Of a stretch of 64,000 nt of DNA, positions 8,549 to 54,735 are shown piece after piece. Each line of letters begins with the position of its first letter. Position 1 is the first letter of the stretch. Origin of the DNA: Candidatus Desulfaltia sp. (GTDB lineage Bacteria; Desulfobacterota; Desulfobacteria; Desulfobacterales; ETH-SRB1); assembly GCA_030656555.1 (NCBI GenBank), contig JAUSPN010000106.1, forward strand, positions 8,404 to 72,403. Direction: 5' to 3'. The translations under genes and the position numbers were made by a program. The notes under the pieces are model-generated. The model saw nothing but the letters and a program-made list of their open reading frames with translations. It was not told the DNA's origin and did no database searches.

Positions 8549-8756
8549 CAACCGTTCACGGTTATCGGTTCACAGTTCACAGTTTAAAACGGTTACCGGT
8601 TTACGGTTAACTGTAAATTTATAAAGATGTACTGATAACCTGCAAGATTTTCCTCAAACTTCTAAATCTTCAAAAGAGAACCATATAATTCTCCTTTACC
8701 TTCTGTTTTTTTCAACCGTGAACCGATAACTGTAAACCGTGAACGGTTACGATAAC
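8549..8756. repeat. Long imperfect palindrome with low-complexity arms (GTTCAC/GGTTA tandem units) around a core of about 95 bp
   Basis: Left arm aaccgttcacggttatcggttcacagttcacagtt... Right arm caaccgtgaaccgataactgtaaaccgtgaacggttacgataac is its approximate reverse complement. Sits between convergent genes. Confidence 0.7.
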
Positions 8757-8775
8757 AAAAAGGCCGAATTAACCT

Positions 8776-8819
8776 TTCAGGTTAGTTAGGCTATAGACCT
8801 TTAGCCTAACTAACCTGAA
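8776..8819. terminator. Perfect 17-bp stem hairpin between convergent operons
   Basis: ttcaggttagttaggct (8776-8792) pairs with agcctaactaacctgaa (8803-8819) across a 10-nt loop, 10 nt from the stop of 8829..10016. No clean U-tract. Confidence 0.5.
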
Positions 8820-8828
8820 TAATTACAG

Positions 8829-10016
8829 TTAATTAATATTGATCGCGCCAAATGGATTGTCGGTTCCTTTTTTGAAAAACAGAAAACGATTTCCCTTGGC
8901 CTGCTGGGTATCAAACAGTATGCCCTGATCCTGCAAGCCCTTGTAAAGTTCCCGCTTAAAATCGAATTTTTTCCCCTGATAGTTCACATCAAGCTGAAAA
9001 TTTCCAGGCGATTCATTTCTAACAGACTTGTCCTTAAAACCGGTCATTTTCTCAATTACATCAACGATTATATAAGTTTCCTGTTCTGAAAAGTTTCTAA
9101 ACCATACATCAAGACGGGTTCCAGCGTGAACAGCACGCTCAAAATAAGACAGTGTATCTTCAATTAAAGCATCTGCAATCGCTTTTCCCAATTGATCCGC
9201 AGCCTTTGCAGCCTGCATATCTTCATAATAATTTCCTGCTGCTTTCATGATTTTTACGTACAGATCACCCGATTTTTGAGCTATAAGATCTGCGGTGGCC
9301 GGAGCAACGGCACGCAATGCTATTTCAACAATGACACCGCCAAAATACTTGCTCGATCCACCGGTCTTGCTCGCTGCATGCACATCATATACAAGAAGCA
9401 GGTCTGCCTTATATTTTAAGGCAAGAGCGGAAAGGTCGTCCATATCCACATCAATCCTGCCTGCCTGCTCTATCTCGTTGTAAACATCATTAACGAACAT
9501 TTTGTCCAGGACTATAAAGCCTTTTCTGGCAAAAACTCCGTTAATTGCCTGCTCGGCGGCCCTGACTACCCTGGAATCCCTGTGCATTGAACTTTTGGTT
9601 TCGGGAATATAAATTGCCATAAATCGGGGGTTGCCGATCTGTGCCATTAGAATCCCGATCGCCTTTAAATCATTTTTAATCGAAGCTGTTTGCACGTCAG
9701 CCTGCATGGTTACGGTGTATATTGAGCCGTCCGGACTTTTTCCTTCAGACAATATATTATAATTGGTTACATAACCGCTTGCCCTCGAATAAATCTTATC
9801 CTGCAGCACCTCAAAGTTCGCAACCTTGGTTTTAGAATCGATGAGAGCGCCTATGCCTTGTTCAACCGCAGCCCGCTGGGCATCAGCAATAGCGCTTTTA
9901 CGATCTGTTCCTTGCCCCACAACCGTCACCATTGCGCTGTAACCGGTTGATACAAAAAGAAATATAATTCCCAAAACAAGACATGCCATCATATTTTTTT
10001 TATTTTTTAAAGCCAT
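8829..10016 (-). CDS. FlgT-like periplasmic protein, paralogue of 7417..8544
   Basis: 395 aa with a signal peptide. KSAIADAQRAAVEQGIGALIDSKTKVANFEVLQDKIYSRASGYVTNY aligns by eye position-for-position with the 7417 protein. This includes the following IK(N/D)DL and PR(F/L)M segments. Confidence 0.55.
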   Translation of the reverse strand: MALKNKKNMMACLVLGIIFLFVSTGYSAMVTVVGQGTDRKSAIADAQRAAVEQGIGALIDSKTKVANFEVLQDKIYSRASGYVTNYNILSEGKSPDGSIYTVTMQADVQTASIKNDLKAIGILMAQIGNPRFMAIYIPETKSSMHRDSRVVRAAEQAINGVFARKGFIVLDKMFVNDVYNEIEQAGRIDVDMDDLSALALKYKADLLLVYDVHAASKTGGSSKYFGGVIVEIALRAVAPATADLIAQKSGDLYVKIMKAAGNYYEDMQAAKAADQLGKAIADALIEDTLSYFERAVHAGTRLDVWFRNFSEQETYIIVDVIEKMTGFKDKSVRNESPGNFQLDVNYQGKKFDFKRELYKGLQDQGILFDTQQAKGNRFLFFKKGTDNPFGAININ

Positions 10017-10031
10017 AATACCTCCTTTAAA

Positions 10032-11156
10032 TTAATATATCCGCACCCCTTTTTCTTCCTGTGTTTTCTGAACCGGTTTTTGCTTCAGCATGTTTTTTTG
10101 TTGTTCATATTTCCGGCAGTCTTTGATTGCAACCTGAATTCTTGCCATAGCATCCAGGTAAAGTTTATTATCCCCGCATTTGACTGCCTTTTTATACATT
10201 TTGCTTGCGATATTGAAATTTTCAAGGTCGCCAACAGATTCGTGGGCCAGACCTAAATTATAATAGGCGGCCGCGTTATCTGGTTCAGCCTTGATTACAT
10301 CCTGCCAGATCTCTTTTGCCTCGTCCCATAATCCACGCTTGGCGAATTCTATGCCGCGTTTTATCATATCATGGCCACCATAGCCAAGTTTTCCGCCGTC
10401 ATAAAATTCTATGGTTTCGGTAATCTTTGTTGGAGAAATTTTTGCGACAAGCTGAGACGCAACATTGGCTGACAAATCATTTAAGGTTTGATTCGGCGCC
10501 GGTAACTGGCTTAACTTCATCCCTCCTAAAACTGAAAGAACATATTCCTTGTTGCCGCCGAATTTCTGATTGTAATTTTCCGTGACCTTGCTGGTCGCTA
10601 TAATCTGCTTTGTTTTCAGGTTAAACACTTTGAAATCAGTGGTTAGAGAAGCCTGGCGTATGACATAGGGCACCGGCCTGAGTACTGTCTTTTTGATTTC
10701 CACATCCACCCATTTACCAAAAATATTTTTTTCTTTTTTATATCGTCCCGTGCCTTCCTGCATCTGGACCTGTTCATGTCCACGGATATCATTTATGTTG
10801 GAGGTTACCCGCCCGGTAATTACTCCATCTGCTTGAATATTTTCAAAAGCCGGAAGAAATCTTGGATCGTCCACTTGATCATAGACAACCTGGTCCAGGG
10901 CATTTGTCTTTGAAGTGTCAATAAGATTGAAGTGCTGCACCTCGCTTAATTTATTATAGAAATCGCTGCGCACAGTTTCACCGAACTGGCCTTCAAACTT
11001 AAGCAAAGCAAGCGTCCGGATGCCGCCAAGAGAAACTTCGGCAGGCCTGATCCTGCTTACACTGGTCTTTCCGGCGCAACCAAACCATGCAAGCATTGCA
11101 ATTACTATTAAGCCTGCTGATAATTTTAAGATATGTTGCTTGTAATTCATGGGCAT
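10032..11156 (-). CDS. Lipoprotein with C-terminal TPR domain
   Basis: 374 aa. Lipobox AWFGCAG. TLALLKFEGQFGE module near the N-terminus. C-terminal TPR (GLWDEAKEIWQDVIKAEPDNAAAYYNLGLAHE). Confidence 0.55.
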   Translation of the reverse strand: MPMNYKQHILKLSAGLIVIAMLAWFGCAGKTSVSRIRPAEVSLGGIRTLALLKFEGQFGETVRSDFYNKLSEVQHFNLIDTSKTNALDQVVYDQVDDPRFLPAFENIQADGVITGRVTSNINDIRGHEQVQMQEGTGRYKKEKNIFGKWVDVEIKKTVLRPVPYVIRQASLTTDFKVFNLKTKQIIATSKVTENYNQKFGGNKEYVLSVLGGMKLSQLPAPNQTLNDLSANVASQLVAKISPTKITETIEFYDGGKLGYGGHDMIKRGIEFAKRGLWDEAKEIWQDVIKAEPDNAAAYYNLGLAHESVGDLENFNIASKMYKKAVKCGDNKLYLDAMARIQVAIKDCRKYEQQKNMLKQKPVQKTQEEKGVRIY

Positions 11157-11182
11157 TTCCCTTCAATTAAAAGTTAATTTGA

Positions 11183-12172
11183 TTATTGTCGCAAGCCGGC
11201 ATCAATATTTTTGCCCTTTGGTTCAGGCGGAAGGTTAGGTTTTATCAAAAAATTTTTTTTAATCGACTCAACCACCTTGTCTATATTTTCTACTCCATCC
11301 CTGATTTCGTTAACCCCTCTCTTTGTTGACCGTGTAACCTCCGGTATATCATGGCTCCCTTCTTCCATCTCTTTTAAAATCCTTTTAATGCTTGAGATGC
11401 TATCTAATACCCCCTCTCCGGCCTTTTTTATCGTTGCGAGATTATCCTGGACCTTATTTGTTATTTCAGGTGTTGCCTGGGCAATGCTTTCCAGAATCTG
11501 AGTTACCTTGCCAAGATCATCAAGTATGATTTGCAGAACTTCCCTGGATTTTAGTATGCTGCCGGCAGTCCCTTTGCCGGCCTGTATATCACCGGTAATA
11601 GCTTCAAGATGAGAAATGGTTTTGTTTAAGTTATTGACGGTTGTAAAAAAGGGGCCATTGGGATCCCGCATTATTTGTGTTATTTCTGAGATATTCTGGA
11701 CCATCCCGACAACCTTTTTAGCTGTTTCTTCAACACGGAACTCTGACATAAGGTCGGATATCGATTTTTTTGCCGTGGAATTGATTTCTCCGCCCTCAGG
11801 TATCAGGGGGCTGTCCGCGCTTCCTGGTTTAATGGAAATATATTCAGACCCGATAAATGTCGGGCTTTCCACAATTGCAACAGAATCGCTTCTTATTCTG
11901 GAAGAATATTCCTCTAAAATAGCCAGCTTAACCTTAACCCTGTTTTCAACAAGTACAATTTTTTTTACCTTTCCTATATCTGCTTTAAATAGTTTTACAG
12001 CAGCATCTTCCTTAAGATTATAACTTTCATTAAAGGTAGTATAATATGTAATGTATGTTTTGAACCAGTCTTTGCCTCTGCCGATAATCACCACAGTAGT
12101 CAGCAGTATAACTACGATGCAGATTATAAATGTTCCAACTGTTTTTTCTTTTTTGCTAAAATTTAAGTCCAT
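11183..12172 (-). CDS. MlaD/MCE-family substrate-binding protein with long helical C-terminal extension
   Basis: 329 aa. N-terminal TM anchor, then an MCE-domain pattern (YYTTFNESYNLKEDAAVKLFKADIGKVKKIVL...VAIVESPTFIGSEYISIKPG). Confidence 0.75.
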   Translation of the reverse strand: MDLNFSKKEKTVGTFIICIVVILLTTVVIIGRGKDWFKTYITYYTTFNESYNLKEDAAVKLFKADIGKVKKIVLVENRVKVKLAILEEYSSRIRSDSVAIVESPTFIGSEYISIKPGSADSPLIPEGGEINSTAKKSISDLMSEFRVEETAKKVVGMVQNISEITQIMRDPNGPFFTTVNNLNKTISHLEAITGDIQAGKGTAGSILKSREVLQIILDDLGKVTQILESIAQATPEITNKVQDNLATIKKAGEGVLDSISSIKRILKEMEEGSHDIPEVTRSTKRGVNEIRDGVENIDKVVESIKKNFLIKPNLPPEPKGKNIDAGLRQ

Positions 12173-12180
12173 GGAATTAA

Positions 12181-12388
12181 TAAGTGCCTAAAGTATGTTA
12201 AAGTATGTTAAAGTGCCTAAAGTTAAAGGAATTCTGCCTATTTTATACCTGCCGGCAGGTAGGTAGGTTCCTTAAGCCATCAATGCACAAGGGAGCAAGC
12301 TCCTTCTATCTTTGGGTTATCAATTAGCACGCCGAAGGCGTACCACAACTTTAGGCATTTTAGGCACTTTAGCTCACTTTAGGCACTC
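12181..12388. repeat. Long imperfect palindrome with low-complexity arms (GTGCCTAAAGT units)
   Basis: Left arm taagtgcctaaagtatgttaaagtatgttaaagtgcctaaagttaaagg. Right arm aactttaggcattttaggcactttagctcactttaggcactc is the reverse complement in kind. The core holds small hairpins (cctgccggcagg; acgccgaaggcgt). Confidence 0.7.
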
Positions 12389-12395
12389 AAAACAC

Positions 12396-13067
12396 CTAAG
12401 CTGAAATGGTTGTTAATTTTCCACCTGAAATAAGTATTTTCCTGTTTGAAAACTCTTTAACAAAATCAGTGTGATAAGAAATAAAAACAACAGGGAGTCC
12501 GGATAGTAACATTTCTTTAAGAAGCTTGACAAAGAGATCGAATTTTTCATGCCTGATAAAATCCTCAGGCCGCTCAAACAGCAGTATGTCAGGCGACTTG
12601 GTAAGCTCTCTGATTACAATGGCGCTTCGCAGTTCCGTCGGCCTGAGATCGCCCGGACGCATATCCAGTTTGTCATAAATATCGAAAACAGTGCATAAAT
12701 TTTTAACATTATCGCTGAGATCAAGGAAAAATGAATTTTCAAAATAGTATCGCATTAATAGAAGATTTTCCCTGATACTCATATTGCTGATCATCGATGC
12801 ATCTGCAGCAACATAACCTATTTTTTTCTTATATGGAAGAAGATTTCTGTGGTCTGAAAAATTAATTTTTCCCCCCATAAATCGATAAATGCCTTTTGTT
12901 GGATGCTCAAGCATTGCAACAGCCTTTAGAAGCAGGTGTGCGTCATCCGGCGAATCAGCCTGCACAGAGCATGCATCCCCCTTTGACAGGCCAAAATAGA
13001 ATCGGTTAAGGCCGTTTCCTTGACCTGTTGGGGAAAGCGTATAATCTGAAAGCTCGATTAACCTCAT
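12396..13067 (-). CDS. ABC-ATPase-like protein with degenerate catalytic motifs (MlaF position)
   Basis: 223 aa with ABC NBD length and layout. Walker A position reads ADSPDDAH, signature position LRPTE, Walker B ILLFERPE, H-loop SYHT. Confidence 0.6.
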   Translation of the reverse strand: MRLIELSDYTLSPTGQGNGLNRFYFGLSKGDACSVQADSPDDAHLLLKAVAMLEHPTKGIYRFMGGKINFSDHRNLLPYKKKIGYVAADASMISNMSIRENLLLMRYYFENSFFLDLSDNVKNLCTVFDIYDKLDMRPGDLRPTELRSAIVIRELTKSPDILLFERPEDFIRHEKFDLFVKLLKEMLLSGLPVVFISYHTDFVKEFSNRKILISGGKLTTISA

Positions 13068-13232
13068 TATTTAGTTTCTTCTCACATTTAGTCGAAACAA
13101 AGTGATTTGTTCCGTAAAAAGTCAAAAAATCACTTTTTGCGAACCGTGTTAAGTGTTAAAGGTATGATTAAACAGGCAATTTCTTTAACATAACACCTGA
13201 TGAATTCGTTTTTTTTACGAATTCATCATTAT

Positions 13233-14009
13233 TTACAGGTAAAATATTATGGATATAATGACATTTATTACCAGGCAGTAAAAAAAACACTCAATGGCTG
13301 CTTTTGATGTTGCTATTGGCAGGCCTGTAATATTTTTTTTTATGCTGAATCCTTGATAGAGACATGTTACGGTAATAATAATTCCAAAACACAGGGCTTT
13401 TACAATTCCTACAATAATATCTGTCGGAGTTACGGCTTTTGCAATCTGTCCAAGAAAGTCGCCTAAATTAATATGTGTAAAGACCCACACTGCCCCATAA
13501 CCTCCGACAATGGACACCAGGTCAAAAACGATGAAAAGACAAAGTATGGCGGAGGTAATTCCTATTAATCTCGGCAGACAAATTGTTCTTATGGGATCAA
13601 TGCCTGACATTTCAAGCGCATCTATTTCATGAAAAATCTTCATGTAGCCGATCTCTATAGTTACTGAAGTGGCTGATCTTAATATAACCAAAAGAGCTGT
13701 AATGCCGGGGCCTAATTCTCTTACAATTAACAGCACCATTGTTGTGCCTATGTCATATTGACTTGAGATCCTGGCAAATTGTATAATAAGCATGCTCCCA
13801 ACAATAAGAGCAATCGGAATAAGCAGGGGAAGGGCTTGCACAGCCGTAAAATATATCTGTTCCAGAATAACTCTTCTGACAAGAACTCTACCTTCTATTG
13901 GTTTTTGAAGGATCAGATTGAATATTCTGTAAGTAAAGGCAAACAGGTTCAAAATATGATTGACAGATTGTAAGGTTTTTCTGCCTATGTAACCCGCTAT
14001 TTGATACAT
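13233..14009 (-). CDS. MlaE-family ABC transporter permease
   Basis: 258 aa polytopic protein. EQIYFTAVQALPLLIPIALIVGSMLIIQ and TSKAAIECFFYCLVINVIISIIF are typical of MlaE/YrbE. Confidence 0.8.
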   Translation of the reverse strand: MYQIAGYIGRKTLQSVNHILNLFAFTYRIFNLILQKPIEGRVLVRRVILEQIYFTAVQALPLLIPIALIVGSMLIIQFARISSQYDIGTTMVLLIVRELGPGITALLVILRSATSVTIEIGYMKIFHEIDALEMSGIDPIRTICLPRLIGITSAILCLFIVFDLVSIVGGYGAVWVFTHINLGDFLGQIAKAVTPTDIIVGIVKALCFGIIITVTCLYQGFSIKKNITGLPIATSKAAIECFFYCLVINVIISIIFYL

Positions 14010-14033
14010 GTTACTCGTTACTCGTTGCGTATT

Positions 14034-14246
14034 GTTGACTGTGAGCGTTCACGGAACGTTGAAATTGGAAAATAGAAATTGGAAATTTGGCCTGAACCTT
14101 TTTGTTCCACTTATCAAAGTCGTGCCCGACCATATCTGATAACGCTTCTGCTGGTTTGTAAACATCCAACTCGTAAACTCGTTTCATCGCTCCCAAATTT
14201 CTACTTTCCAATTTCAAGTTTCAAGCCGTGAACGGCTACTGTTGAC
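14034..14246. repeat. 55-bp inverted repeat enclosing a decayed four-helix-bundle (23S rRNA IVS-type) gene fragment
   Basis: 14034-14090 gttgactgtgagcgttcacggaacgttgaaattggaaaatagaaattggaaatttgg. 14193-14246 ccaaatttctactttccaatttcaagtttcaagccgtgaacggctactgttgac is nearly its reverse complement. Confidence 0.7.
14092..14187 (-). pseudogene. N-terminal fragment of a four-helix-bundle protein (IVS/S23p-like family)
   Basis: MKRVYELDVYKPAEALSDMVGHDFDKWNKK matches the family N-terminus pattern (y-e-L-x-V-Y-k-x-A...w..k). The remaining roughly 90 aa of the family are missing. Confidence 0.45.
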
Positions 14247-14270
14247 TTATTATAAATCTTACAATATAAA
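14242..14270 (+). promoter_or_regulatory. Sigma70-like promoter candidate for the CHASE2 cyclase operon
   Basis: TTGACT (14242-14247), 17-nt spacer, TATAAA (14265-14270), about 20-75 nt upstream of the candidate starts. Confidence 0.35.
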
Positions 14271-14290
14271 ATTAAAACAGGTCAACAAAA

Positions 14291-16588
14291 TTGAACATAT
14301 GCCATGTGCCTGACATTTCATACGGAGATCTCGCGGAGACCTTTATGAAAAAAATCGCTTTACTCTATCCCCTTTTCATTTCTATGTTTGCCATATTCGT
14401 CGGAATCCTTGCTTATTTGCAAGGGATATCCTTTCTTGATCTAATGGAATTAAAAACCATTGATTTAAGATTTGAGACAAGAGGACAAATCTCTCCACGC
14501 CCTGATGTGGTTCTGGCAGTTATTGATGAAAAAAGCATTGGTAAAGAGGGAAAGTGGGTATGGCCAAGGTCAAAAATCGCAAATCTTGTTACAAAACTGT
14601 CAAAAGCCGGTGCCGGCGTAATAGCATTTGATATTGGATTTTTTGAAGAGGATGATAAAAAAATTGTAAACACCATAAACGAGATACAACGCACAATTCA
14701 CGATCACAACATTCGAAAAAAAGAAATTGACAGCTATCTGAAAAATCTAAAAAAGCATGCGAACAACGATCAACTCCTTGCCGATGCTATAAGAAATTCC
14801 ACAGCCAAAATAGTGCTGGGATATTTTTTCCACACAGATCCCACTGAATCAAGCCATATCAGCGAAAACCAGATCAGTATTCACAAGAAGAATATTTCAG
14901 GGTCCAGGTATAAATTTATACGTTATGCTTCAGGAGCTTCTCAGAATATACCACTTGTTGAAGCCAAAACACCTCAGTCTAATATAGAAATTATTTCAAC
15001 CGCAACCGATTATTCCGGATTCTTTAATATGTTACCGGACAAAGACGGGGTTGTGCGATGGATGCCCGGCGTCTTCAAGTGCGCGGAGAAGTTGTACGCT
15101 CCTTTGTCGCTAATAGCTCTCAGCGCTTATTTGGAAAGCCCGATTTCAATTAATATTGGTGAATATGGTGTGGAAAGAGTGCAAGTTGGGAAAATAATGG
15201 TACCGACAGATGAGCTGGGACGAATTTTGATAAATTACAGAGGAGCAGGGAAAACCTTTCCTCATATACCTGTTACAGATATACTAAACAATAATATAGC
15301 CGATACTGTTGTGAAGGACAAGATCGTTATAGTGGGTGCGACTGCTGTTGGAATCTACGATTTAAGGGTAACTCCATTTGAAAACGTTTTTCCAGGCGTT
15401 GAAATTCACGCAAATGTCGTAGACAGCATCCTTTCAAAGGATTTTATGTATCAACCGGCCTGGGCTGCTATTTTTGACATTATGGCAATAATTGTTGCCG
15501 GACTTATCCTCGGGCTTGTGCTTCCTAAAGCAGGCGGCATATCAGGCGCTGCAGCTGGTTTCTCATTGTTTGCCGGCTATATTTTGCTATGCCAGTATCT
15601 ATTTTCTCAAAAAGGCTTAATCCTCAATCTTGTTTATCCCCTGAGTGTAATAATTTTAGTATATATCAGCATAACCGCATACAAATATTTTACAGAGTCA
15701 AAGCAGAAGAAATTTATCAAAGATGCTTTTTCTACTTATCTTGCTCCCGCAGTTGTCAAACAGCTTATCGAGTCTCCTGAGAAGCTTGTGTTGGGTGGTG
15801 AAGAACGTAAAATTACAGCCTTTTTTTCAGATATCCAAGGTTTTACAGGTATTTCCGAAGGGTTGACTCCAAAGGAGCTTGTTGAACTGTTAAATGAATT
15901 CCTTACAGAAACAACAAACATAATTCTTAAATATGAAGGAACGGTGGATAAATTCGAAGGTGATGCTATAATCGCATTTTTTGGAGCCCCTAACGATCTT
16001 GAAAATCAGGAAGAAATAGCATGTATGGCTTGCATTGACATGCAAAAAAGGCTGTCTGAACTAAGAGAAGGCTGGAAAACATCAGGCAAGCCGGAGCTTT
16101 ATATGCGGATCGGTCTTTGCACGGGTCCGGCTGTTGTCGGCAACATGGGATCAAAAACACGCATGGACTATACAATGATGGGAGATACGGTTAATATTGC
16201 GTCAAGGCTGGAAGGGGTTAATAAAATATACGGAATTTATATGCTGATTGGCGAAACAACTTTCAGAAAAGCCGGCGATAAAATAATGGCAAGGGAAATT
16301 GATTCGATAAATGTTGTGGGGAAAAAAGAACCGGTAAGGGTTTATCAGCTTTTAGGTTATAAAAAAGATATTGGTGAAAGCATGGATAAGACAATAGATA
16401 ATTACTCCAGCGGCCTTTATGCATACAGAAATCAGGATTGGGAAAAAGCCGAAAGTTTTTTTAAGGCAGTTTTGGAGCTGACACCTGACGACGGTCCAAG
16501 CAAGACCATGCTTCTCAGGTGTGATGAATATAAAATTAATCCCCCTCCAAAAAATTGGGATGGATCGTTTACTATGAAAACAAAATAA
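14291..16588 (+). CDS. CHASE2 sensor-domain class III adenylate/guanylate cyclase
   Basis: 765 aa. Likely true start is MKKIALLYP at 14345. Periplasmic CHASE2 region, then TM helices. Cyclase domain ERKITAFFSDIQGFTGISE...FEGDAIIAFFGAP...GLCTGPAVVGNMGS..RMDYTMMGDTVNIASRLEG. TPR-like tail. Confidence 0.85.
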   Translation: MNICHVPDISYGDLAETFMKKIALLYPLFISMFAIFVGILAYLQGISFLDLMELKTIDLRFETRGQISPRPDVVLAVIDEKSIGKEGKWVWPRSKIANLVTKLSKAGAGVIAFDIGFFEEDDKKIVNTINEIQRTIHDHNIRKKEIDSYLKNLKKHANNDQLLADAIRNSTAKIVLGYFFHTDPTESSHISENQISIHKKNISGSRYKFIRYASGASQNIPLVEAKTPQSNIEIISTATDYSGFFNMLPDKDGVVRWMPGVFKCAEKLYAPLSLIALSAYLESPISINIGEYGVERVQVGKIMVPTDELGRILINYRGAGKTFPHIPVTDILNNNIADTVVKDKIVIVGATAVGIYDLRVTPFENVFPGVEIHANVVDSILSKDFMYQPAWAAIFDIMAIIVAGLILGLVLPKAGGISGAAAGFSLFAGYILLCQYLFSQKGLILNLVYPLSVIILVYISITAYKYFTESKQKKFIKDAFSTYLAPAVVKQLIESPEKLVLGGEERKITAFFSDIQGFTGISEGLTPKELVELLNEFLTETTNIILKYEGTVDKFEGDAIIAFFGAPNDLENQEEIACMACIDMQKRLSELREGWKTSGKPELYMRIGLCTGPAVVGNMGSKTRMDYTMMGDTVNIASRLEGVNKIYGIYMLIGETTFRKAGDKIMAREIDSINVVGKKEPVRVYQLLGYKKDIGESMDKTIDNYSSGLYAYRNQDWEKAESFFKAVLELTPDDGPSKTMLLRCDEYKINPPPKNWDGSFTMKTK

Positions 16589-29201: not shown

Positions 29202-29202
29202 T

Positions 29203-46803: not shown

Positions 46804-47069
46804 CAATGCTTTTTGGGAAAGCAAAATCTACAATAAATGAGCATATTAAAAATATTTATGCAGAAGAAGAACTGGAAGAGAACCAAACTTTGAAGAAATT
46901 CGGAATTTCCGAATTTCAGCAGAAAGAGCCAAATTACTATAATCTTGATGTAATAATTTTAGATTCCCTCAGACCCCCTCCAATGCCCATTTTGTCAAGT
47001 ATTGTCCGGAAAATACTTGACAAAATGTTGTGTTCTCTCTATGCTCCCTATAAAGTTGGGATGCAATAA
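46800..47069 (+). pseudogene. RhuM-family protein fragment
   Basis: LFGKAKSTINEHIKNIYAEEELEENQTLKKFGISEFQQKEPNYYNLDVII matches the central RhuM pattern. Both termini are missing. Confidence 0.45.
46988..47027. promoter_or_regulatory. Perfect 16-bp inverted repeat upstream of abiEi (candidate operator)
   Basis: cattttgtcaagtatt (46988-47003), 8 nt, aatacttgacaaaatg (47012-47027). Ends 50 nt before the abiEi ATG. Confidence 0.4.
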
Positions 47070-47076
47070 TCTGAAA

Positions 47077-47802
47077 ATGAAAATAACAGAAAAAATAAGT
47101 AAACAAATCAATAAAATGCCTGCGGGTATCACGTTTAAGTATCAGCAACTGTGTATTTCAAATAACGAGTATGGCGCTGCTGCAAAAGCCATTGAAAGAC
47201 TGATTGCAAAAAAAATTATAAAGCGGATCTCAACAGGAGTTTTTTACAAACCCAAAAAAACTTTATTTGGAGAATTAAAGCCAAGGGAAGAAGAACTGCT
47301 ACGTCCATACATGTTCATTGGGGATAAAAGAATCGCTTATATAACAGGTACTGCATTGTATAACAGAATTGGGTTAACCACTCAGGTACCAAAAGATATA
47401 AAGGTTTCAAGCAAGGTTAAAGAAATTCGTACTCAAATCGGCAATGTTAAAGTGCGGAGGGTAAAAAGTTATATTGATGTTACAAATGATAATTTTTATC
47501 TGCTTGAAATACTTGATGTGTTAAAGGATTTCAAAAAAATTCCAAATTTGGATAAGGTTATGGCTGTCAGCTATCTTTTGAATTTCATAAAAGGATTAAA
47601 ACAAAAAGATCTTTTACGTCTTATTCGATACGCCCTGAAATATCCTCCCCGCACCCGTGCATTTCTTGGGGCTTTATTGGAAAAAATAAAAACTGAGCTG
47701 GACACAAATCAATTGAAACAAAGCCTAAATTCGTTGACAGTTTATGATTTGGGGATAGACAAACAAATTCTTTCAACAGTACCGGAATGGAATATTAAAT
47801 AG
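47077..47802 (+). CDS. abiEi: AbiEi-family type IV antitoxin/transcriptional regulator
   Basis: MKITEKISKQINKMPAGITFKYQQL...RLIAKKIIKRISTGVFYKP...IAYITGTALYNRIGLTTQVP. Confidence 0.7.
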   Translation: MKITEKISKQINKMPAGITFKYQQLCISNNEYGAAAKAIERLIAKKIIKRISTGVFYKPKKTLFGELKPREEELLRPYMFIGDKRIAYITGTALYNRIGLTTQVPKDIKVSSKVKEIRTQIGNVKVRRVKSYIDVTNDNFYLLEILDVLKDFKKIPNLDKVMAVSYLLNFIKGLKQKDLLRLIRYALKYPPRTRAFLGALLEKIKTELDTNQLKQSLNSLTVYDLGIDKQILSTVPEWNIK

Positions 47803-47803: not shown

Positions 47804-48242
47804 TTGAAACTGCATCAAAATAATGAGCTTTTCCAAGATGCTGTACTATCTGCTTCACAGCGATTTAGCATTCCGGAAATCTATATGGAAAAAGATTATT
47901 GGGTAACCTTGGTGCTATATGAAATATTCCATTCAAATATAGCGGATCAAATTGTTTTTAAGGGCGGAACCTCGCTTTCAAAATGCCATAAACTCATTCA
48001 GAGGTTTTCAGAGGATATTGATCTGGTTGTGTTGCGCAATAAAGGAGAAAACGACAACCAACTGAAAAGAAAGATTCGAAGCATAAGCAAGGTTGTTGAG
48101 AATGTATTGTCTGAAATTCAAGTTGAAGGTTTGACAAACAAAAAGGGTAATATCAGAAAAACAGTTTACCGGTATAACAGGCTTTTTGAGGGAAGTTTCG
48201 GGCAGGCAAGAGATCAAATCATACTTGAATCTACCTGGCTTG
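47804..48242 (+). pseudogene. abiEii: AbiEii/DUF1814 nucleotidyltransferase toxin, 5' part (interrupted by IS21-family element)
   Basis: VFKGGTSLSKCHKLIQRFSEDIDLVV is the NTase motif. The reading frame leaves the gene at the TSD TGGCTTG (48236-48242). Confidence 0.8.
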
Positions 48243-48352
48243 TAGAAATTACAACCTAAAATTGACCCCCTTCGGCAACCCAATTTTGACCCCCTAAGAA
48301 TTTGAACAAAAATATCCATTGCCAATAAAGTCATTACTAAATGCCGTTTATT

Positions 48353-49105
48353 TTAATTATTTTTTTTAAGTGTTTCCTTGAGACGATAACTTTCCCAGCT
48401 ACAGTTAATCACATGCGCTTTGTGAGTTATTCTATCCAGTAATGCCGCTGTCATGCTGGGATCGCCAAATATTTGTGTCCAGTCTCCAAAGCCCATATTG
48501 CTTGTGATTATGACCGGTTTTCTTTCATGACGTTCGGCCAGAATCTGGAAAATAAGCTGAGCTCCTTCTTTAGAAAATGGAACATATCCTAATTCATCAA
48601 TAATGAGCAAACCATAACCAGCATAACGCTTTATGACACGACCAAGGACCTTTTCATCTCTGGCTTCAATGAGTTCGTTGGCCAGACCGCAGCCTGTTGT
48701 AAAATGTGTTCTGACACCCTGTTTGCAGGCTTCCATGCCCAGACCGGTTGCAAGATGTGTTTTACCCGTGCCGCTTTTGCCCATAAAAATGATATTGCGC
48801 GTTTTTTTAACATATTCACAATTTGAAAGTTCCTTAATCAATCGGGCATCCAGATCCGGGGCTGCCTCAAAATTAAATGCTTCAAGCGGTTTTAGTAAAG
48901 GGAACCTGGCTTCCTTCAGTCTGCGCTTGCAACCATTTTCCTGCCGGACTTGAACTTCGGTCTCGGTTAAATTCAAAAGAAATTCATCATAATCCAGTTT
49001 CTCCTGTCTGGCCTGGCGAAGATGACTCTGCAGATTGCGTATCGTTGTTGATAATTTTAAACTTTTAAGATTTTCAATCAGTAATGCTTTCATCCCTGCA
49101 TTCAT
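48353..49105 (-). CDS. istB: IS21-family helper ATPase IstB
   Basis: 250 aa. Walker A GKSGTGKTHLA and Walker B LLIIDELGY. Confidence 0.9.
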   Translation of the reverse strand: MNAGMKALLIENLKSLKLSTTIRNLQSHLRQARQEKLDYDEFLLNLTETEVQVRQENGCKRRLKEARFPLLKPLEAFNFEAAPDLDARLIKELSNCEYVKKTRNIIFMGKSGTGKTHLATGLGMEACKQGVRTHFTTGCGLANELIEARDEKVLGRVIKRYAGYGLLIIDELGYVPFSKEGAQLIFQILAERHERKPVIITSNMGFGDWTQIFGDPSMTAALLDRITHKAHVINCSWESYRLKETLKKNN

Positions 49106-50634
49106 ATGGCACCTCCGATCTGACCATATACAGTTACATCCGGAGGCGGCAGAGTTTGCCAGTTATCCAAAGTTACAAAAGATGGATCATGTTGCGTGCT
49201 CTTTAAAATGTGTTCTACTGCCTGGCTGGAACCGGTATTTGCTGTGAGCGCCTTCTCAACGGCTGATTCGATATCAGCGGCAGCATGATCTTTGTAGAAC
49301 ATTAAAACCGATATGAAGTCTTTGATGCCCTTTGTATGACCCTGCTTTTGACAAAATTTATCTAAAAGCCTTTCAAGACAATATGGCCAGGTTTTGCGCC
49401 ATTGCCGTATGGGGCGGGCAGAGTCAAATGCCTGCGGCCTTTGCCGGATAAGTTCCAGATAGTGTTCTGACTTAAGGCTCCACTTGTTGACGTCATAAAG
49501 CCGATTGTGGATTGCTATATTTTTGCTTCCATAAAATATCTCAACACGATCCACATACAAAATAACATTGACCTTGAAATAGGCATATGATGTCGGTACC
49601 GAATAACGATTTTTATCTATGATTACGGTAGAGTATTTATCGGCCTTACTACAAGAAGTATGAATGTTACTGAACTCAATACGCGGCAAATCAATAAGAT
49701 GCTTTTTCTCTGCCTCGTACAACTCATTTACAGTCTGCTCTCTTCCGGCAAGCCGATGATCTCCATAAGCAACACAGTCTTTTAAAAGTTTTTCATTTAA
49801 TGCTTTTAAATTCTCAGCCTCTGGTACAGGAACCATATAATTGCGCCGGGCATAACCGACAAGACCTTCAACTCCACCTTTTTCATGCCCCTGTCCAGGA
49901 TTACAAAAGCGAGGGGTAAAATTATAAAATGCCCGAAACTTGTCATATGATTCCTGCAGAATCCTCCTTTTACCCGGAAATACTTTTTGGACCGCTGTGG
50001 TCAAATTGTCATAGATCAATACCGGAAAGATACCACCAAAAAATGCAAAAGCCTGAATATGAGCGTCAAATAAGGCTTGTTGCCGTTCACACGGATAGCA
50101 CCGGACAAAGTGTTTGCCGGAATACTTTGAACGCATACAGAACAGTTTTAGCCTGGTTACTTTGTTTCCCAAAATAGCTGTGCAAGTGCCCCAGTCAACC
50201 TCAGCTTCACCCCCAGGATCAGGCTGCAGAGGTATAAATGCCTGATGAATATTTATGCCTAATCTGAGTTTGGCTTCTCGAACATATCGACTAACTGTTG
50301 TCGCTGCTCCTGTAAAACCGTGTTCCTGCTTAAGCCGATTATAAACTCTTACCGCCGTGTGTCGCTGCTTTTTTGGCCTTTGCTTGTCATCTTCCAACCA
50401 TTTGTCAATGATGTTAAGATATAGTTCTAACACCGGATATGGCTGCTTTATTCTGGACTTATATCCGCTATGTTCGCTTCGCAGCACTTTCTTAATCGTA
50501 TTTCTGGAATGACCTGTCTCTCTTGCTATCTGCTTGATCTTCTTTCTATAAACTCGATACGCTATCCGAATGTAATCATATTGATCCACCTTGAGCATTC
50601 TCCTTTCCCCCTCTGGTTTTTGAATTGGTAACAA
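49102..50634 (-). CDS. istA: IS21-family transposase IstA
   Basis: 510 aa. N-terminal HTH (IKQIARETGHSRNTIKK). DDE region (EVDWG...LIYDNLTTAV...). Confidence 0.9.
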   Translation of the reverse strand: MLPIQKPEGERRMLKVDQYDYIRIAYRVYRKKIKQIARETGHSRNTIKKVLRSEHSGYKSRIKQPYPVLELYLNIIDKWLEDDKQRPKKQRHTAVRVYNRLKQEHGFTGAATTVSRYVREAKLRLGINIHQAFIPLQPDPGGEAEVDWGTCTAILGNKVTRLKLFCMRSKYSGKHFVRCYPCERQQALFDAHIQAFAFFGGIFPVLIYDNLTTAVQKVFPGKRRILQESYDKFRAFYNFTPRFCNPGQGHEKGGVEGLVGYARRNYMVPVPEAENLKALNEKLLKDCVAYGDHRLAGREQTVNELYEAEKKHLIDLPRIEFSNIHTSCSKADKYSTVIIDKNRYSVPTSYAYFKVNVILYVDRVEIFYGSKNIAIHNRLYDVNKWSLKSEHYLELIRQRPQAFDSARPIRQWRKTWPYCLERLLDKFCQKQGHTKGIKDFISVLMFYKDHAAADIESAVEKALTANTGSSQAVEHILKSTQHDPSFVTLDNWQTLPPPDVTVYGQIGGAI

Positions 50635-50725
50635 CCATTCCTATACCAGAGGTCAGCTTCAATGGGGGTCAATTTTGGGTTGCAATTTGCCCTTCAGGGG
50701 GGTCAATTTTAGGTTAGCAAAACTA

Positions 50726-51265
50726 TGGCTTGGAAATTATGAACCGTTCACAAGTGAAGAAGTAAGTAGTTATGTTTTTGAAGTGATGAAACTCACTGGA
50801 CAGGAGTCTTTGATCAGGGAATACGGTCTACAGCCATTTAAAGTTCAGGTATTAAGCATAGAACGGACATTTTGTGAAAAGATAATGAGCCTGGTCCGTT
50901 TTTCACAAATGGATGACCCCTACACAAACTTGTCAAACAAAATCAGGCATGTATATGACATCCATCTCATGCTAAGTAATGAATCAATTAAATTTTTTTT
51001 TGAAAGTGCTGAATTTTATAAAATGCTGGTGAAGGTCGGAAAAGACGATTTTATCAGTTATAAAAATAATAATGCTTGGTTAGAAGAGCACCCTTGCTCG
51101 GCATTAATTTTTAAAGACCCAGAGGTGACCTGGAATCATATCAGATCCACATACCGAACAATTTTTAAAGAATTGGTTATTGGTAAATTGCCCAATGAAA
51201 ATGATTTGATCGATACCCTTAAAAAAATTGAAAAGAGAATGAAACCATTTACTTGGGGAATTTAA
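50726..51265 (+). pseudogene. abiEii: AbiEii/DUF1814 toxin, 3' part
   Basis: Removing the IS plus one TSD copy joins ...ILESTWL to GNYEPFTSEE... in frame. That restores a 323-codon ORF. Confidence 0.8.
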
Positions 51266-51341: not shown

Positions 51342-54300
51342 TCGATAAATAATCGTGTTACAGTAAATCTGATCATGATTTTTATCATTGTGGCCGGACT
51401 CATTACAGTCATGAATATGCGCAGGGAGCTTAATCCCCAGTTTGCTCTTGATATGATAAATATAAGCGTGGTTTACCCCGGGGCGAGTCCTGAAGATGTT
51501 GAGGAGGGTATATGCATTAAAATTGAAGAAAAAATCAAGGGTATTGAGGGCATAGACCGCACATTTTCCAATGCCTACGAAGGCATGGGATCGCTGACGG
51601 TTGAACTTGATTCAGATGCAGACAGCCGGAAAGTACTGGATGATATCAAGGCAGAAATTGACCGTATCGACACCTTTCCGGAGGATGCCGAGGACCCTGT
51701 TATTACTGAAATAATAAACCGGCATCCCGCTATAACCGTTGCCGCATATGGTGATGTTTCTGAAAAACTCCTGAGGAAGGTTGCCGAAAAAATCAGGGAC
51801 GATCTTACCGACACCGGACCCATTTCTCTGGCAGACCTTGTGGGAGTTAGAGACTACGAGATATCCATAGAGGTATCGGAAGAAAACCTTCGGCGGTACG
51901 GCATTTCATTTGATGTTGTTGTCAGGGCGGTTAAAACAGGTAGTGTCGACCTCCCGGGCGGAACCATAAAAACTTCTCAGGGAGAAATCCTCGTAAGGGC
52001 TAAGGGGCAGCTTTATACCGGCAAGGAATTTAAAGAACTTCCTCTTATTACACTGGAAGACGGCACTGTTGTTCGGCTTGGACAGGTTGCAACCGTTATA
52101 GATGGTTTTGAAGATATTGATATGAAAGCAAGGTTTAACGGCAAACCAGCAGCCCTTATTCAGGTAAACAGAACAAACACGGAAGATCTTATACTGGTTT
52201 CAAGAACCGTCAGGGATTATGTGGAAAAACATAGAGGTGCAATGCCTGAAGGGGTCAAGCTTGCCACATGGTTTGATCTGTCGCTGCTTGTTCAGGACAG
52301 GATTGACATGCTTCTCAGGAACGGGGCTCAGGGAATTGTACTTGTTTTTATTGCGCTGGCGCTGTTTTTAAACATGCGTCTGGCATTCTGGGTCTCTATC
52401 GGCATACCAGTATCTTTTATGGGAGCCTTTATGGTTCTTGATTATAAAGGTGAAACCATAAATATGATCTCCCTTTTTGCTTTTATTATGACATTGGGGA
52501 TACTGGTTGATGATGCAATAATAATTGGAGAGAACATATATACGCATTTCAGCAGGGGTAAGTCGCCTGCGAGATCTGTGATTGATGGAATAAAGGAGGT
52601 CGGCGGTCCTGTTGTAATGGCTGTCAGCACCACCATAGTCGCATTTATACCACTGCTTTTTATTACAGGTATAATAGGCAAATTTATTGCTGTTATGCCC
52701 AGGGCCGTGATAGCGATCCTGATAATATCATTGGGAGAAGCCCTTATCATGCTGCCGGCTCATCTGACCGGCGCCCTGACAAGATCAGCGCTAAAAACAG
52801 ACAGCAGACCCTCCTGGCACGAGCGGATAAGGGTTAAAGTTGAACATTTGCTTAACGTTGTGATTGAGAAATATTATACTCCGGCTTTAAAATACGTAGT
52901 AAAAAACAGATACTTTGCTTTTGCTGTTGGTCTGGGAATGCTCATAATAAGTCTCGGCATTGTAGCCGGCGGTTATGTGCCATTTGTATTCTTCCCAAAA
53001 GGCGAAAGCGACTGGATTATTGCAGAGGTCGGCTATCCCCTTGGAACGCCATATGAAGTAACCGAAAAAACAATCGAACATTTAGAGAATCAGGCTTTTA
53101 AGTTAAATGATTATTTTGGCAAGCATTTAGGAAATAATGGCGGCCTGGTAATAAATACATTCGCGCTGGTCGGCATGATTCCAAGAAGAGACTGGAAACC
53201 GGGTGAGACCGGCGGGCACTGCGGTGAGGTCTGGATAGAACTTGTCCCCTCGGAAAAGAGACATGATCTTTCTGTAAATACGGTTTTAAACAAATGGCGA
53301 GGTTTGACAGGAGAAATTCCCGGAGTGGAAACGCTGACATTTACAACTCTTGAAGGCGGGCCCGGGGGAAATCCTATTGAAATACAGCTTGTCGGAGGCG
53401 CCGACTTTGAGCAATTGAGACAGGCTGCAGATGAGTTAAAAACCGAAATCCAAACTTATCCCGGCACCTTTGCCATTACAGATAATTTTAAGCCTGGAAA
53501 GGAGGAAAGGCAGGTTAAGATAAAAGAAGGAGCGAAATCTCTTGGGATAACCATGAGCGATATTGCAAGACAGCTTCGCCAGGCATTTTATGGAGATGAG
53601 GCTCTCCGGATTCAGAGAGGCAGGGATGATTTAAAGGTGCTGGTTAGATACGCGGAACCAGACCGTCGGAGCATTTCAGGCCTTGAGGATATGCGCATCA
53701 GGACAACTGACGGGCAGGAGATTCCCATCGAAGAGGTTGCGGATATTACCCACGGAAGATCTTATTCCGTAATTCACAGGGTTGATAGAAAACGTGTGAT
53801 AACTGTTATTTCGAATCTTGATGAGTCAATTGCAAACGCAAGCAAGATTGTGGCTGATCTTAAAAAGGATTTTTTTCCAAAGCTGATTGGGCGCTATCCT
53901 GGATTAGAATACGATTTAGAAGGTCAGGAGAAAAGGACCAGAGAATCGCTCGGCAGCCTGAAAAAAGGATATGTGCTTGCACTTATGGGAATCTTTCTTT
54001 TGCTCGCAAGCCAGTTCCGTTCTTATATCCAGCCTGTTATAATAATGATGGCCATACCTTTCGGCCTGATCGGGGCGATTGCAGGTCATCTTGTTATGGG
54101 CTTGCAGATTACGATGATAAGTATTTTCGGCATAGTGGCCCTGTCAGGAATAGTAGTAAACGATTCACTTATACTGATAGACTTTATTAACAGGGCGGTT
54201 CAAAATAATGCGGAAATTGAAACAGCTGTTATAGAATCCGGAAAAGTCAGATTCCGGCCTGTATTGCTTACATCAATAACAACTATCGCCGGGCTTTTGC

Positions 54301-54476
54301 CCCTTCTCCTGGAGCGGAGTTTTCAGGCGCAATTTCTTATACCCATGGCCGTCAGCATAACCTTTGGACTTCTTGTCGCCACAGTTTTGACACTTCTATA
54401 TGTTCCAGGTCTTTATCTTATTGTAAGAGATGTCAGGAATATTTTTAGAGGTTTATCGACAAAAACCCGATCCTGA
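51321..54476 (+). CDS. RND efflux transporter permease (AcrB/HAE family)
   Basis: 1051 aa. 12-TM RND architecture with two large periplasmic loops. N-terminus WSINNRVTVNLIMIFIIVAG. Confidence 0.9.
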   Translation: MESLGKWSINNRVTVNLIMIFIIVAGLITVMNMRRELNPQFALDMINISVVYPGASPEDVEEGICIKIEEKIKGIEGIDRTFSNAYEGMGSLTVELDSDADSRKVLDDIKAEIDRIDTFPEDAEDPVITEIINRHPAITVAAYGDVSEKLLRKVAEKIRDDLTDTGPISLADLVGVRDYEISIEVSEENLRRYGISFDVVVRAVKTGSVDLPGGTIKTSQGEILVRAKGQLYTGKEFKELPLITLEDGTVVRLGQVATVIDGFEDIDMKARFNGKPAALIQVNRTNTEDLILVSRTVRDYVEKHRGAMPEGVKLATWFDLSLLVQDRIDMLLRNGAQGIVLVFIALALFLNMRLAFWVSIGIPVSFMGAFMVLDYKGETINMISLFAFIMTLGILVDDAIIIGENIYTHFSRGKSPARSVIDGIKEVGGPVVMAVSTTIVAFIPLLFITGIIGKFIAVMPRAVIAILIISLGEALIMLPAHLTGALTRSALKTDSRPSWHERIRVKVEHLLNVVIEKYYTPALKYVVKNRYFAFAVGLGMLIISLGIVAGGYVPFVFFPKGESDWIIAEVGYPLGTPYEVTEKTIEHLENQAFKLNDYFGKHLGNNGGLVINTFALVGMIPRRDWKPGETGGHCGEVWIELVPSEKRHDLSVNTVLNKWRGLTGEIPGVETLTFTTLEGGPGGNPIEIQLVGGADFEQLRQAADELKTEIQTYPGTFAITDNFKPGKEERQVKIKEGAKSLGITMSDIARQLRQAFYGDEALRIQRGRDDLKVLVRYAEPDRRSISGLEDMRIRTTDGQEIPIEEVADITHGRSYSVIHRVDRKRVITVISNLDESIANASKIVADLKKDFFPKLIGRYPGLEYDLEGQEKRTRESLGSLKKGYVLALMGIFLLLASQFRSYIQPVIIMMAIPFGLIGAIAGHLVMGLQITMISIFGIVALSGIVVNDSLILIDFINRAVQNNAEIETAVIESGKVRFRPVLLTSITTIAGLLPLLLERSFQAQFLIPMAVSITFGLLVATVLTLLYVPGLYLIVRDVRNIFRGLSTKTRS

Positions 54477-54514
54477 TCCCCAACTCCTGGTCCTCATAAG
54501 CGCTAAACTGAAAA

Positions 54515-54735
54515 AAATGAACATCGAACATCGAACGTCCAACATCGAATGTTGAACTGAACAGCGAGCGCATTCCCCGCTGCTTGCGGCGGGGTTAGCG
54601 AGCGAATCAAAAAATTGACAGAATTCCTTACAGTCGAAGATTCCCCGCTGCTTGCGGCGGGGAGCTTCAATTTAAAGAGCGGAGCGACATCATTATTCGA
54701 CGTTGGACGTTCAATGTTCGACGTTGGACGTTCAT
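54515..54735. repeat. Full CCCCGC-hairpin element (plus orientation) bracketed by inverted CGAACGT-type low-complexity arms
   Basis: Arm gaacatcgaacatcgaacgtccaacatcgaatgttgaac. Core gcgagcgcattccccgctgcttgcggcggggttagcgagcgaatcaaaaaattgacagaattccttacagtcgaagattccccgctgcttgcggcggggagcttc. Arm ttcgacgttggacgttcaatgttcgacgttggacgttca. Confidence 0.8.

Follow-up and report, generated by a model that had tools for sequence, protein, structure and literature searches.

Intergenic palindromes with heptamer arms in a Candidatus Desulfaltia contig as probable relics of small mobile four-helix-bundle gene cassettes

Intervening sequences (IVSs) of ribosomal RNA (rRNA) genes that carry an S23p, or four-helix-bundle (4HB), open reading frame (ORF) have been known since the early 1990s. 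In the 23S rRNA genes of Coxiella burnetii, Leptospira, Brucella, and Xanthomonas, the ORF belongs to the protein family PF05635 and lies within terminal inverted repeats that form a long stem (PMC4990558). The IVS of Coxiella has a 28-bp terminal stem and two to three tandem GACAGAT heptamers directly upstream of the S23p ORF, the first of which is where RNase III cleaves; the heptamer copy number differs between strains, and the ORF is undergoing reductive evolution (PMC4990558). Mobility of rRNA IVSs has long been suspected and is still a hypothesis (discussion in PMC4990558). Here we analyze a stretch of 64,000 nucleotides from Candidatus Desulfaltia sp. (contig JAUSPN010000106.1, positions 8,404-72,403), called the window below and giving all site coordinates, in which five long palindromes with tandemly repeated arms (sites 1-5) lie between protein-coding genes. 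With a probability of about 0.8, these palindromes are relics, decayed to differing degrees, of widespread and very small mobile 4HB gene cassettes.

Two other groups of described elements are relevant. Elements of the IS66 family produce 8-bp target duplications (PMC12888890, PMC12898284), and their published inverted repeats begin, for example, with GTAAGCGTCCGG and GTAACCGTCCGG, as in ISPa75 and ISPsk01 (PMC12888890). Intergenic tandem heptamers are represented by the STRR of heterocystous cyanobacteria (Nostoc), by the GGGAATC units of Xanthomonas, which form 70-75 convergent pairs (PMC4692102), and by the TAACTGA units of Beggiatoaceae (PMC4679880). The arms described here resemble these repeats in their tandem 7-nt units, intergenic location, variable copy number and frequent arrangement in inverted pairs, while PMC4692102 and PMC4679880 draw no link to 4HB genes or transposition.

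Five palindromes and the insertions at sites 1 and 3

An initial annotation, made from the letters alone, had described five intergenic palindromes whose arms consist of differing tandem units. A repeat search and Tandem Repeats Finder (TRF) recovered all five at, or within a few bases of, those positions, with arms made of tandem 7-10-nt units, and the palindromes rank among the longest inverted repeats of the window. The paired arms lie at 8550-8589 / 8709-8748 in site 1 (40 nt, 80% complementary), 12183-12221 / 12359-12387 in site 2, 14059-14090 / 14193-14224 in site 3 (32 nt, 81%), 29243-29263 / 29321-29341 in site 4 (just 21 nt, 76%) and 54520-54555 / 54690-54725 in site 5 (36 nt, 86%). 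All sites are situated between protein-coding ORFs and abut stop or start codons, and Rfam detects no known RNA family at any of them. When the RNA fold of each site was compared with 200 dinucleotide shuffles, the predicted pairing of the arms was borne out by clearly non-random folds at site 1 (8540-8765, z = -4.87), site 2 (12175-12395, z = -8.87), site 3 (14010-14255, z = -3.26) and site 5 (54505-54745, z = -7.33), and was marginal at site 4 (29195-29355, z = -1.83), for which 9 of the 200 shuffles fold equally well.

Site 3 (14041-14239, minus strand; 199 bp) derives by internal deletion from a 4HB cassette of 459 bp. Its termini, GTAGCCGTTCACGG and GTGAGCGTTCACGG, and its arms of GAAATTG heptamers match those of L002 and related loci (L numbers denote the 207 stretches fetched from other genomes, and P numbers denote database protein homologues). 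The element is flanked by a target-site duplication, TGTTGACT, at 14033-14040 on the left and 14240-14247 on the right, with all eight positions matching. Syntenic contigs of three relatives, whose MlaE proteins are 91%, 88%, and 79% identical, were located via this protein, and an empty site was found in the cyclase-mlaE spacer of L082 and L084: both carry a single AGTCAACA, the reverse complement of TGTTGACT, and no element. Within site 3, a 4HB gene fragment of 32 codons, MKRVYELDVYKPAEALSDMVGHDFDKWNKKVQ, occupies 14092-14187 on the minus strand and is joined directly to the downstream arm; its peptide, MKRVYELDVYKPAEALSDMVGHDFDKWNKK, begins at an ATG at 14187, directly after the GGGAG that closes the arm. 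A profile of 50 intact relatives detects this fragment at E = 2e-8, more than 60 individual intact genes match it, down to E = 1e-16, and a six-frame search of the 64-kb window with the relatives' profile gave the fragment, at 14014-14220, as the sole match, site 1 requiring its own subfamily. A database search further yielded 110 short ORFs (31-99 aa), mostly from metagenome-assembled genomes (MAGs) of Desulfobacterales and Thermodesulfobacteriota, and several of them carry PF05635. They represent one gene with differing internal deletions and frameshifts, with the translated arm at the starts or ends (EIRNWGE..., ...KFPISIFQFQ). The full-length protein of 117 aa reconstructed from this family matches PF05635 (1.4e-23, 83.6 bits), TIGR02436, named “four helix bundle protein” (1.5e-23, 83.1 bits), and the structure 2GSC of XCC0516 from X. 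campestris in the PDB (7.9e-5).

Site 1 (8548-8750, minus strand; 203 bp) likewise arose by internal deletion, here from a 4HB cassette of 443 bp. Full-length elements of this size, with a 116-aa ORF, are found in L112 and L162, and the DNA of site 1 can be aligned with them from one terminus to the other. The termini are GTAACCGTTCACGG and GCAACCGTTCACGG, and the arms are GTTCACG / GGTTAxC heptamers; the terminus itself belongs to the heptamer series GTAACCG TTCACGG TTTACAG TTATCGG TTCACGG. The duplication GATAACAA is found at 8540-8547 on the left, overlapping the stop codon of the ORF 7417-8544, and at 8751-8758 on the right, again with an 8/8 match. Site 1 also harbors an N-terminal 4HB pseudogene that is absent from the initial annotation (8612-8684, minus strand): an AAGGAG Shine-Dalgarno site is followed by an ATG at 8684-8682, a frameshift and then FSFEDLEV(TGA)GKSCRLSVHLYKFT, in which TGG has changed to TGA. 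The only Pfam match of this peptide is to positions 1-20 of the PF05635 profile (E = 0.16 in a search of the whole of Pfam; 12.7 bits against a curated cut-off of 33.8 bits), and comparison with the N-termini of the intact 116-aa proteins of L110, L162, L112, and L091 gave E = 1.3e-10 to 4.9e-10. A -35/-10-like match in site 1 (8715-8688, minus strand) overlaps the Shine-Dalgarno site and was not taken as a promoter. The deletion junction is common to L128-type derivatives on several metagenome contigs, and a more decayed ortholog of site 1 is found at the same intergenic place in L085, the relative with an MlaE 79% identical. Beside site 1, between the convergent genes, there is a 21-bp hairpin (8776-8819), which is kept with compensatory changes in L085 (13240-13275) and is probably the real terminator or stabilizer of the flanking convergent genes.

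Sites 1 and 3 and 37 further elements share termini of the form GTAA(G/C)CGTTCACGG, which sites 2, 4, and 5 do not have. Among these 39 elements, the flanking 8-bp direct repeats are perfect in 12 and match at seven of eight positions in another five, while control flanks moved 10 nt outward never exceeded 5/8. Because of the terminal repeats and 8-bp target duplications, the empty site of site 3 and the full-length parents found elsewhere, sites 1 and 3 are transposon insertions of two 4HB cassette families, and both insertions have lost most of the ORF by internal deletion. Furthermore, one MAG has the same deletion derivative of the site 3 family at three or more different loci. Since one deletion derivative recurs at several loci, the deletion lineages of sites 1 and 3 are MITE-like elements (miniature inverted-repeat transposable elements) that have spread to many loci and are mobilized in trans. 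Protein identity is 78-95% across Desulfobacterota, Bacteroidota, Marinisomatota, Verrucomicrobiota, and Nitrospirota. A scan of viral contigs gave one distant relative with 32% identity, and phage carriage therefore does not explain this cross-phylum spread. The 64-kb window contains no intact 4HB ORF (~115-130 codons), its copies being pseudogenes of 32 and ~24 codons.

Intact cassettes in other genomes

An intact cassette is ~440-460 bp long and promoterless. It begins with a terminal inverted repeat and a few tandem units of 7-8 nt, continues with a Shine-Dalgarno site and a 4HB ORF of 116-120 codons, and closes with the same units and terminus in inverted form. When one genome per species was scanned with the reconstructed protein, 443 relatives were obtained, and the best 80 of these loci, which were examined, come from Desulfobacterota, Bacteroidota, “Neomarinimicrobiota”, Verrucomicrobiota, Lentisphaerota, Nitrospinota, Nitrospirota, and Chlamydiota. 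Inverted tandem arrays with a period of 7 or 8 (sometimes 6 or 10) bracket the ORF in 45 of the 47 intact genes with enough flank, and range from two units to 228 nt in Desulfonema magnum; the unit number thus varies from 2 to more than 30 between relatives. An arm score of at least 24 was reached by 36/42 intact 4HB genes (86%) and by 23/312 control ORFs of the same loci (7%; Mann-Whitney p = 1.3e-17). A census with TRF over 470 kb counted 70 pairs of inverted tandem arrays, 51 of which enclose a 4HB match, and an independent metagenome sample, chosen solely by a 21-nt coding motif, displayed the same arm pattern. Altogether, ~180 cassettes from many phyla were sampled.

The arm units differ by lineage, being GAAAYTD, GGACGTT, GTTAATCC, GTTCATTG, GGTCATT, GGTCTCTT, or GATTAAG. 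The fraction of arm 6-mers shared between two cassettes is 0.51 at a protein identity of at least 80%, 0.29 at 60-80%, and 0.01-0.03 below 60%. The arm sequence is inherited with the gene, and the arm type marks the element lineage, not the site. The initial annotation had left the site-specific arms unexplained; they differ because every site received its insertion from an element lineage of its own. An exceptional case is L021 (2950-3409), in which an intact 4HB gene, 77% identical to relatives with GAAATTG arms, lies between GGACGTT arrays and the homology stops exactly at the ORF borders, which suggests an ORF-precise exchange between arm contexts. A universal orientation of the units relative to the gene (“TTGG-first”) was considered and rejected, the family of site 5 and L071 being opposite to L021. 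In L025 (Desulfonema magnum CP061800, 3177915-3184262), the arms of one intact cassette, made of GAAACTG / GAAACTT units, are expanded to ~228 nt at one end and to over 400 nt at the opposite end. TTGGTCA-type units flank the 4HB genes of L052, L064, and L066 and resemble the cyanobacterial STRR2 unit.

The gene upstream of an intact cassette is nearly always co-oriented with it, in 41 of 44 cases (p = 1.6e-9) and in 25 of 26 (p = 8e-7), that is, 66/70 together. Often just 6-10 nt separate the arm from the ATG, and intact cassettes have almost no room for a promoter of their own. Full-length elements fold with their arms closing a terminal stem round the ORF (z = -4.15 and -2.35). As for termination, a role of the palindromes as bidirectional terminators had been proposed in the initial annotation and is not borne out. 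An intrinsic terminator combines a G+C-rich stem with a T-run behind it and, if bidirectional, an A-run in front; the arms here are made of tandem units rich in A+T, and their stems have no T-tract after them. Terminator-like sites built from the long arms were also absent in a scan of 8300-14500, which picked up just small internal hairpins (8549-8564 and 12290-12305).

Sites 5, 2, and 4, solo arms, and the GC-rich hairpin module

Site 5 (54515-54735, no strand assigned) has CGAACAT / CGTCCAA units in the left arm and TTCGACG / TTGGACG units in the right arm. These arms are identical to those of L071 (881-1155), from another Desulfobacterales MAG, which has a different core. The ORF in the L071 core has many database homologues that carry translated arms as extensions (MNIEHRTSNIE..., ...DVGRSMFDV), and their body, ...RETHRWLKLIQRVPLIKKPELLDDILQETEELIKIFVTSIKTAEKKQK, is the C-terminal part of a 4HB protein; among these homologues, P0271 has PF05635, and the NCBI annotation of P0265 reads four helix bundle protein. 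Site 5 thus belongs to a third arm family, one that flanks 4HB C-terminal remnants in other metagenomes and whose ORF is gone in the window. Its core (54560-54670, plus strand) contains, at the ORF position, two copies of a GC-rich hairpin module, GCGAGCGCATTCCCCGCTGCTTGCGGCGGGG, the CCCCGC hairpin already noticed there. The module occurs five times in the window against zero expected; the copies elsewhere are at 39935, 40001, and 20693 (20672-20718, 39927-40035), and one variant with compensatory stem changes, TTCCCACGCTGGAGCGTGGGAA, is located near 17436-17460. It was found in none of 86 loci of other genomes and looks like a separate, genome-specific REP-like repeat; it tends to adjoin heptamer arms.

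Two solo arms reported at 17497-17552 and 39889-39927 are both present. The former, as a feature of 17485-17552 on the plus strand, shares homology with the right arm of site 5, the neighboring AGCGACATCATTATTC included, and lies ~40 nt upstream of the ORF 17591-19015. The latter, a GGATTAA-type arm on the plus strand, abuts the double hairpin module at 39927-40035, which is in reverse orientation.

Site 2 (12183-12387, no strand assigned) fills the mlaF-mlaD spacer with arms of AAGTGCCTA / AAGTATGTTA and small hairpins, GTACGCCTTCGGCGTGC and GGGAGCAAGCTCCC, in the core. Copies of this family, with AAGTGCCTAAAG arms and a GTACGCCTTCGGCGTG hairpin, are found at unrelated loci in L043, L108, and L149. 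Site 4 (29202-29346, no strand assigned) has a long left GGATTAA array (29202-29260) and a short imperfect right arm (29320-29346), and neither a terminal repeat nor informative relatives were found for it. GGGATTA-type palindromes are present in L084, and AGGCACAA-type arms surround a 4HB C-terminal fragment in L045 (E ~1e-4 against intact C-termini in a small local set); Pfam scans of the C-terminal-like fragments of L071 and L045 gave no match. Their architecture makes it probable that sites 2 and 4 belong to the same cassette class, as members without a gene or as relics. The proposal that the palindromes are decayed IVS-like insertion elements therefore fares unevenly: it is sustained at sites 1 and 3 by termini, 8-bp duplications, and parents, extends to site 5 through the arm family, and finds no 4HB or transposon ancestry at sites 2 and 4.

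The mla operon of relatives offers further cases. Their mlaE-mlaF and mlaF-mlaD spacers contain a GGGATTA palindrome, a TTAATCC solo array, or a GCAGAG-type palindrome (L084, 6407-6500 and 7427-7478; L082, 8778-9102); in L084, for example, the mlaF-mlaD spacer has a different 52-nt TTAATCC array. Because each relative carries a different palindrome or solo array there, the mla spacers appear to be hot spots for the turnover of heptamer palindromes. Solo heptamers also occur directly upstream of the mlaE start codon, as (GAGTAAC)n in the window (14010-14026) and as (GAGCAAC)4-5 in L082 (7960-8000) and L084 (5600-5629); their position is kept, their copy number is variable, and they are reminiscent of the TAACTGA repeats upstream of Beggiatoaceae start codons.

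Comparison with known systems, rival explanations, and other features

The cassettes have the same protein family as the 23S rRNA IVSs, and their ORF also lies within terminal inverted repeats forming a long stem, with heptamers in the stem as in Coxiella. Because the genuine Coxiella IVS has tandem heptamers in an RNase III-cut stem, the analogy is closer than the initial annotation had it. The location is different: rRNA IVSs lie inside a 23S rRNA gene (helix 9, 25, or 45), whereas the copies in the window and all of the ~180 cassettes are between protein-coding genes, the only Rfam match in the window is a tRNA gene (60050-60122, minus strand), and no rRNA motif was detected in any of the 207 loci. 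In addition, the cassettes have defined transposon-like termini and 8-bp target duplications, and we know of no report of either in rRNA IVSs; RNase III processing is demonstrated for the IVSs and proposed for the cassettes. The elements thus appear to work like rRNA IVSs but, since none is in rRNA, are not IVSs. The ORF would be expressed by read-through from the upstream host gene, and in the read-through transcript the arms would pair into a long stem, which RNase III may cut, because the Coxiella 23S IVS has the same anatomy and is cut. Such a cut would release the cassette RNA and part the messages on either side of it.

The mobilizing enzyme would be a DDE transposase of the IS66 family. 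The cassette ends, which begin with GTAAGCGT / GTAACCGT and may be compared with the repeats of ISPa75 and ISPsk01, and the 8-bp duplication are suggestive of this family, which also includes passenger-carrying elements (tIS66), and the small non-autonomous internal-deletion copies multiply in a genome like bacterial MITEs. Unlike IS66 elements, the cassettes have no transposase gene inside, subterminal tandem heptamer arrays have not been described for IS66, and many 4HB cassette lineages have heptamer arms without these termini. Unlike classical non-coding MITEs, an intact cassette has a conserved 4HB ORF that fills ~77% of the element. Intergenic imperfect palindromes that are co-transcribed with their neighbors are well known as ERIC/IRU, Correia, and REP/BIME elements, some of them MITE-like with target duplications and, in the case of Correia elements, cut by RNase III. 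These are non-coding, have unique and not tandem-repeat arms, and are restricted to narrow taxa.

Several observations weigh against this explanation. The site 3 peptide alone has no match in direct scans of Pfam and NCBIfam because it is too short, and a profile of close relatives was needed; the assignment of the enclosed peptide to the PF05635 N-terminus, made in the initial annotation, consequently stands through relatives and reconstruction and not through a direct profile match. No 4HB remnant was found at sites 2 and 4, no recognizable target duplication at sites 2, 4, and 5, and no ORF in any sampled copy of the site 2 family. Arms were undetectable at about 15-20% of intact 4HB genes. 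Decayed copies are co-oriented with the upstream gene in 18 of 23 cases (Fisher p = 0.04 versus intact copies), and the orientation bias may partly be an insertion preference and not an expression need. Arm mismatches have no G-U bias to either strand (25 vs 18, plus 77 transversions), and this test therefore speaks neither for nor against selection on RNA pairing in contrast to repeat identity at the DNA level. As for the autonomous partner, no such termini were found paired 0.9-5 kb apart with matching flanking 8-mers in 1.18 Mb of fetched loci, nor was a cognate autonomous IS; with no transposase gene between matching ends, the IS66 assignment rests on 8-10 terminal bases and the duplication length. 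The only transposase in the window is of the IS21 type.

The main rival explanation places the function of the arms at the DNA level: the arms would be subterminal arrays that bind a protein, either the transposase or the cassette's pentameric 4HB protein, and synapse the ends, and the hairpin would be a by-product. Subterminal repeats of En/Spm and Mu bind protein to synapse the element ends. This explanation fits the site 1 terminus that is itself part of the heptamer series, the co-divergence of arm sequence with protein, the wide range in unit number, the lack of G-U bias and the continued spread of deletion derivatives that keep just the arms, and it fits the toroidal homopentamer of the X. 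campestris homologue matched by 2GSC (cited in PMC4990558), arms typically having 3-6 units. But the L021 protein has GGACGTT arms swapped exactly at its ORF boundaries, the Coxiella stem is a demonstrated RNase III substrate (PMC4990558), and co-divergence is equally expected from simple co-inheritance. We regard DNA-level binding as rather unlikely. Much less probable is that the palindromes are host regulatory structures kept in situ, serving as bidirectional terminators, mRNA stabilizers, or RNase III sites of the mla and neighboring operons, with the 4HB fragment incidental. The intergenic location of all sites abutting stop or start codons, the strong stems, the site 1 relic kept at the same position in L085, and the solo arm 17497-17552 just upstream of a gene, as with similar heptamers in Beggiatoaceae (PMC4679880), are what such structures would look like. 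The target duplications and the empty site, however, show insertion, close relatives have different or no palindromes in the same spacers, neither T-tracts nor terminator-like sites accompany the long arms, and the same elements are found at unrelated loci in unrelated phyla.

A third explanation concerns only sites 2, 4, and possibly 5, which may be unrelated simple-repeat palindromes, arisen by slippage round hairpins or from other MITE families, with a convergent likeness to the cassettes. Apart from the missing remnants, IS66-like termini and target duplications at these sites and the ORF-less site 2 family, 19 of the 70 pairs counted in the census have no 4HB match between their arrays, and heptamer repeats are over-represented in many bacteria, for which polymerase slippage is suspected (PMC4692102, PMC4679880). 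Set against these points, the site 5 arms flank 4HB remnants elsewhere, AGGCACAA-type arms enclose the C-terminal fragment of L045, and the overall association of arms with 4HB genes is very strong; an unrelated origin of these sites is thus possible, if doubtful, and for the set as a whole we prefer relics of mobile 4HB cassettes.

The function of the 4HB protein itself invites speculation. Avd, the accessory protein of diversity-generating retroelements, is small and basic, forms a pentameric four-helix bundle, and binds both nucleic acid and a partner polymerase. As a PF05635 member it shares the fold family (PMC10053308), but no reverse transcriptase or template/variable repeats were found near the cassettes, whose sequences group with TIGR02436 and not with Avd. 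On a speculative and unlikely view, the 4HB pentameric ring might read the 7-8-nt units, at DNA ends or in an RNA stem, and recruit a host or IS nuclease or transposase, in which case rRNA IVSs, cyanobacterial STRR, and the GGGAATC pairs of Xanthomonas would be footprints of one ancient cross-phylum class. If the 4HB protein were such an end-recognition factor, the ~450-bp units would be the smallest semi-autonomous mobile genes known.

The window itself holds just decayed copies and is ordinary in this respect; the interest lies in the class revealed. Termini, 8-bp duplications, an empty site, and proliferating deletion derivatives are direct sequence evidence that a gene-plus-heptamer-stem unit transposes, and this unit is spread over many phyla outside rRNA, its intact copies lying nearly always in sense orientation within co-directional gene pairs. 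The nature of IVSs, the purpose of the 4HB protein, and the reason for intergenic heptamer repeats in inverted pairs become testable. An incomplete literature search, by which a prior description may have been missed, found no paper that ties PF05635/TIGR02436, S23, or 23S IVS genes to such arms or to transposition, and TIGR02436 in no paper. For genome annotation, the cassettes explain long low-complexity intergenic palindromes and the many short “hypothetical protein” calls that are translated arms plus gene remnants, and they flag sites where polycistronic mRNAs may be cut.

Other features of the window lie at 45-51 kb. A 30-nt inverted repeat, ACCTGTCTGAATGCGAACACGCACAGGCAG (45450-45479 / 45782-45811, spacer of 302 nt), is similar to a small hairpin repeat, CCTGTCTGCGTGCGGACACGCACAGGCAGG, inserted in or beside the 4HB cassettes of other genomes (flanks of L017 and L041), and the region 45508-46800 contains no ORF of 80 aa or more. 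An AbiEii toxin gene is interrupted by the IS21-type element (istA 49102-50634 and istB 48353-49105, both on the minus strand), and its two parts lie at 47804-48259 and 50675-51265. Upstream of the AbiEii gene lies a DUF6088 gene (47002-47802), which is preceded by a perfect 20-nt palindrome at 46988-47027.

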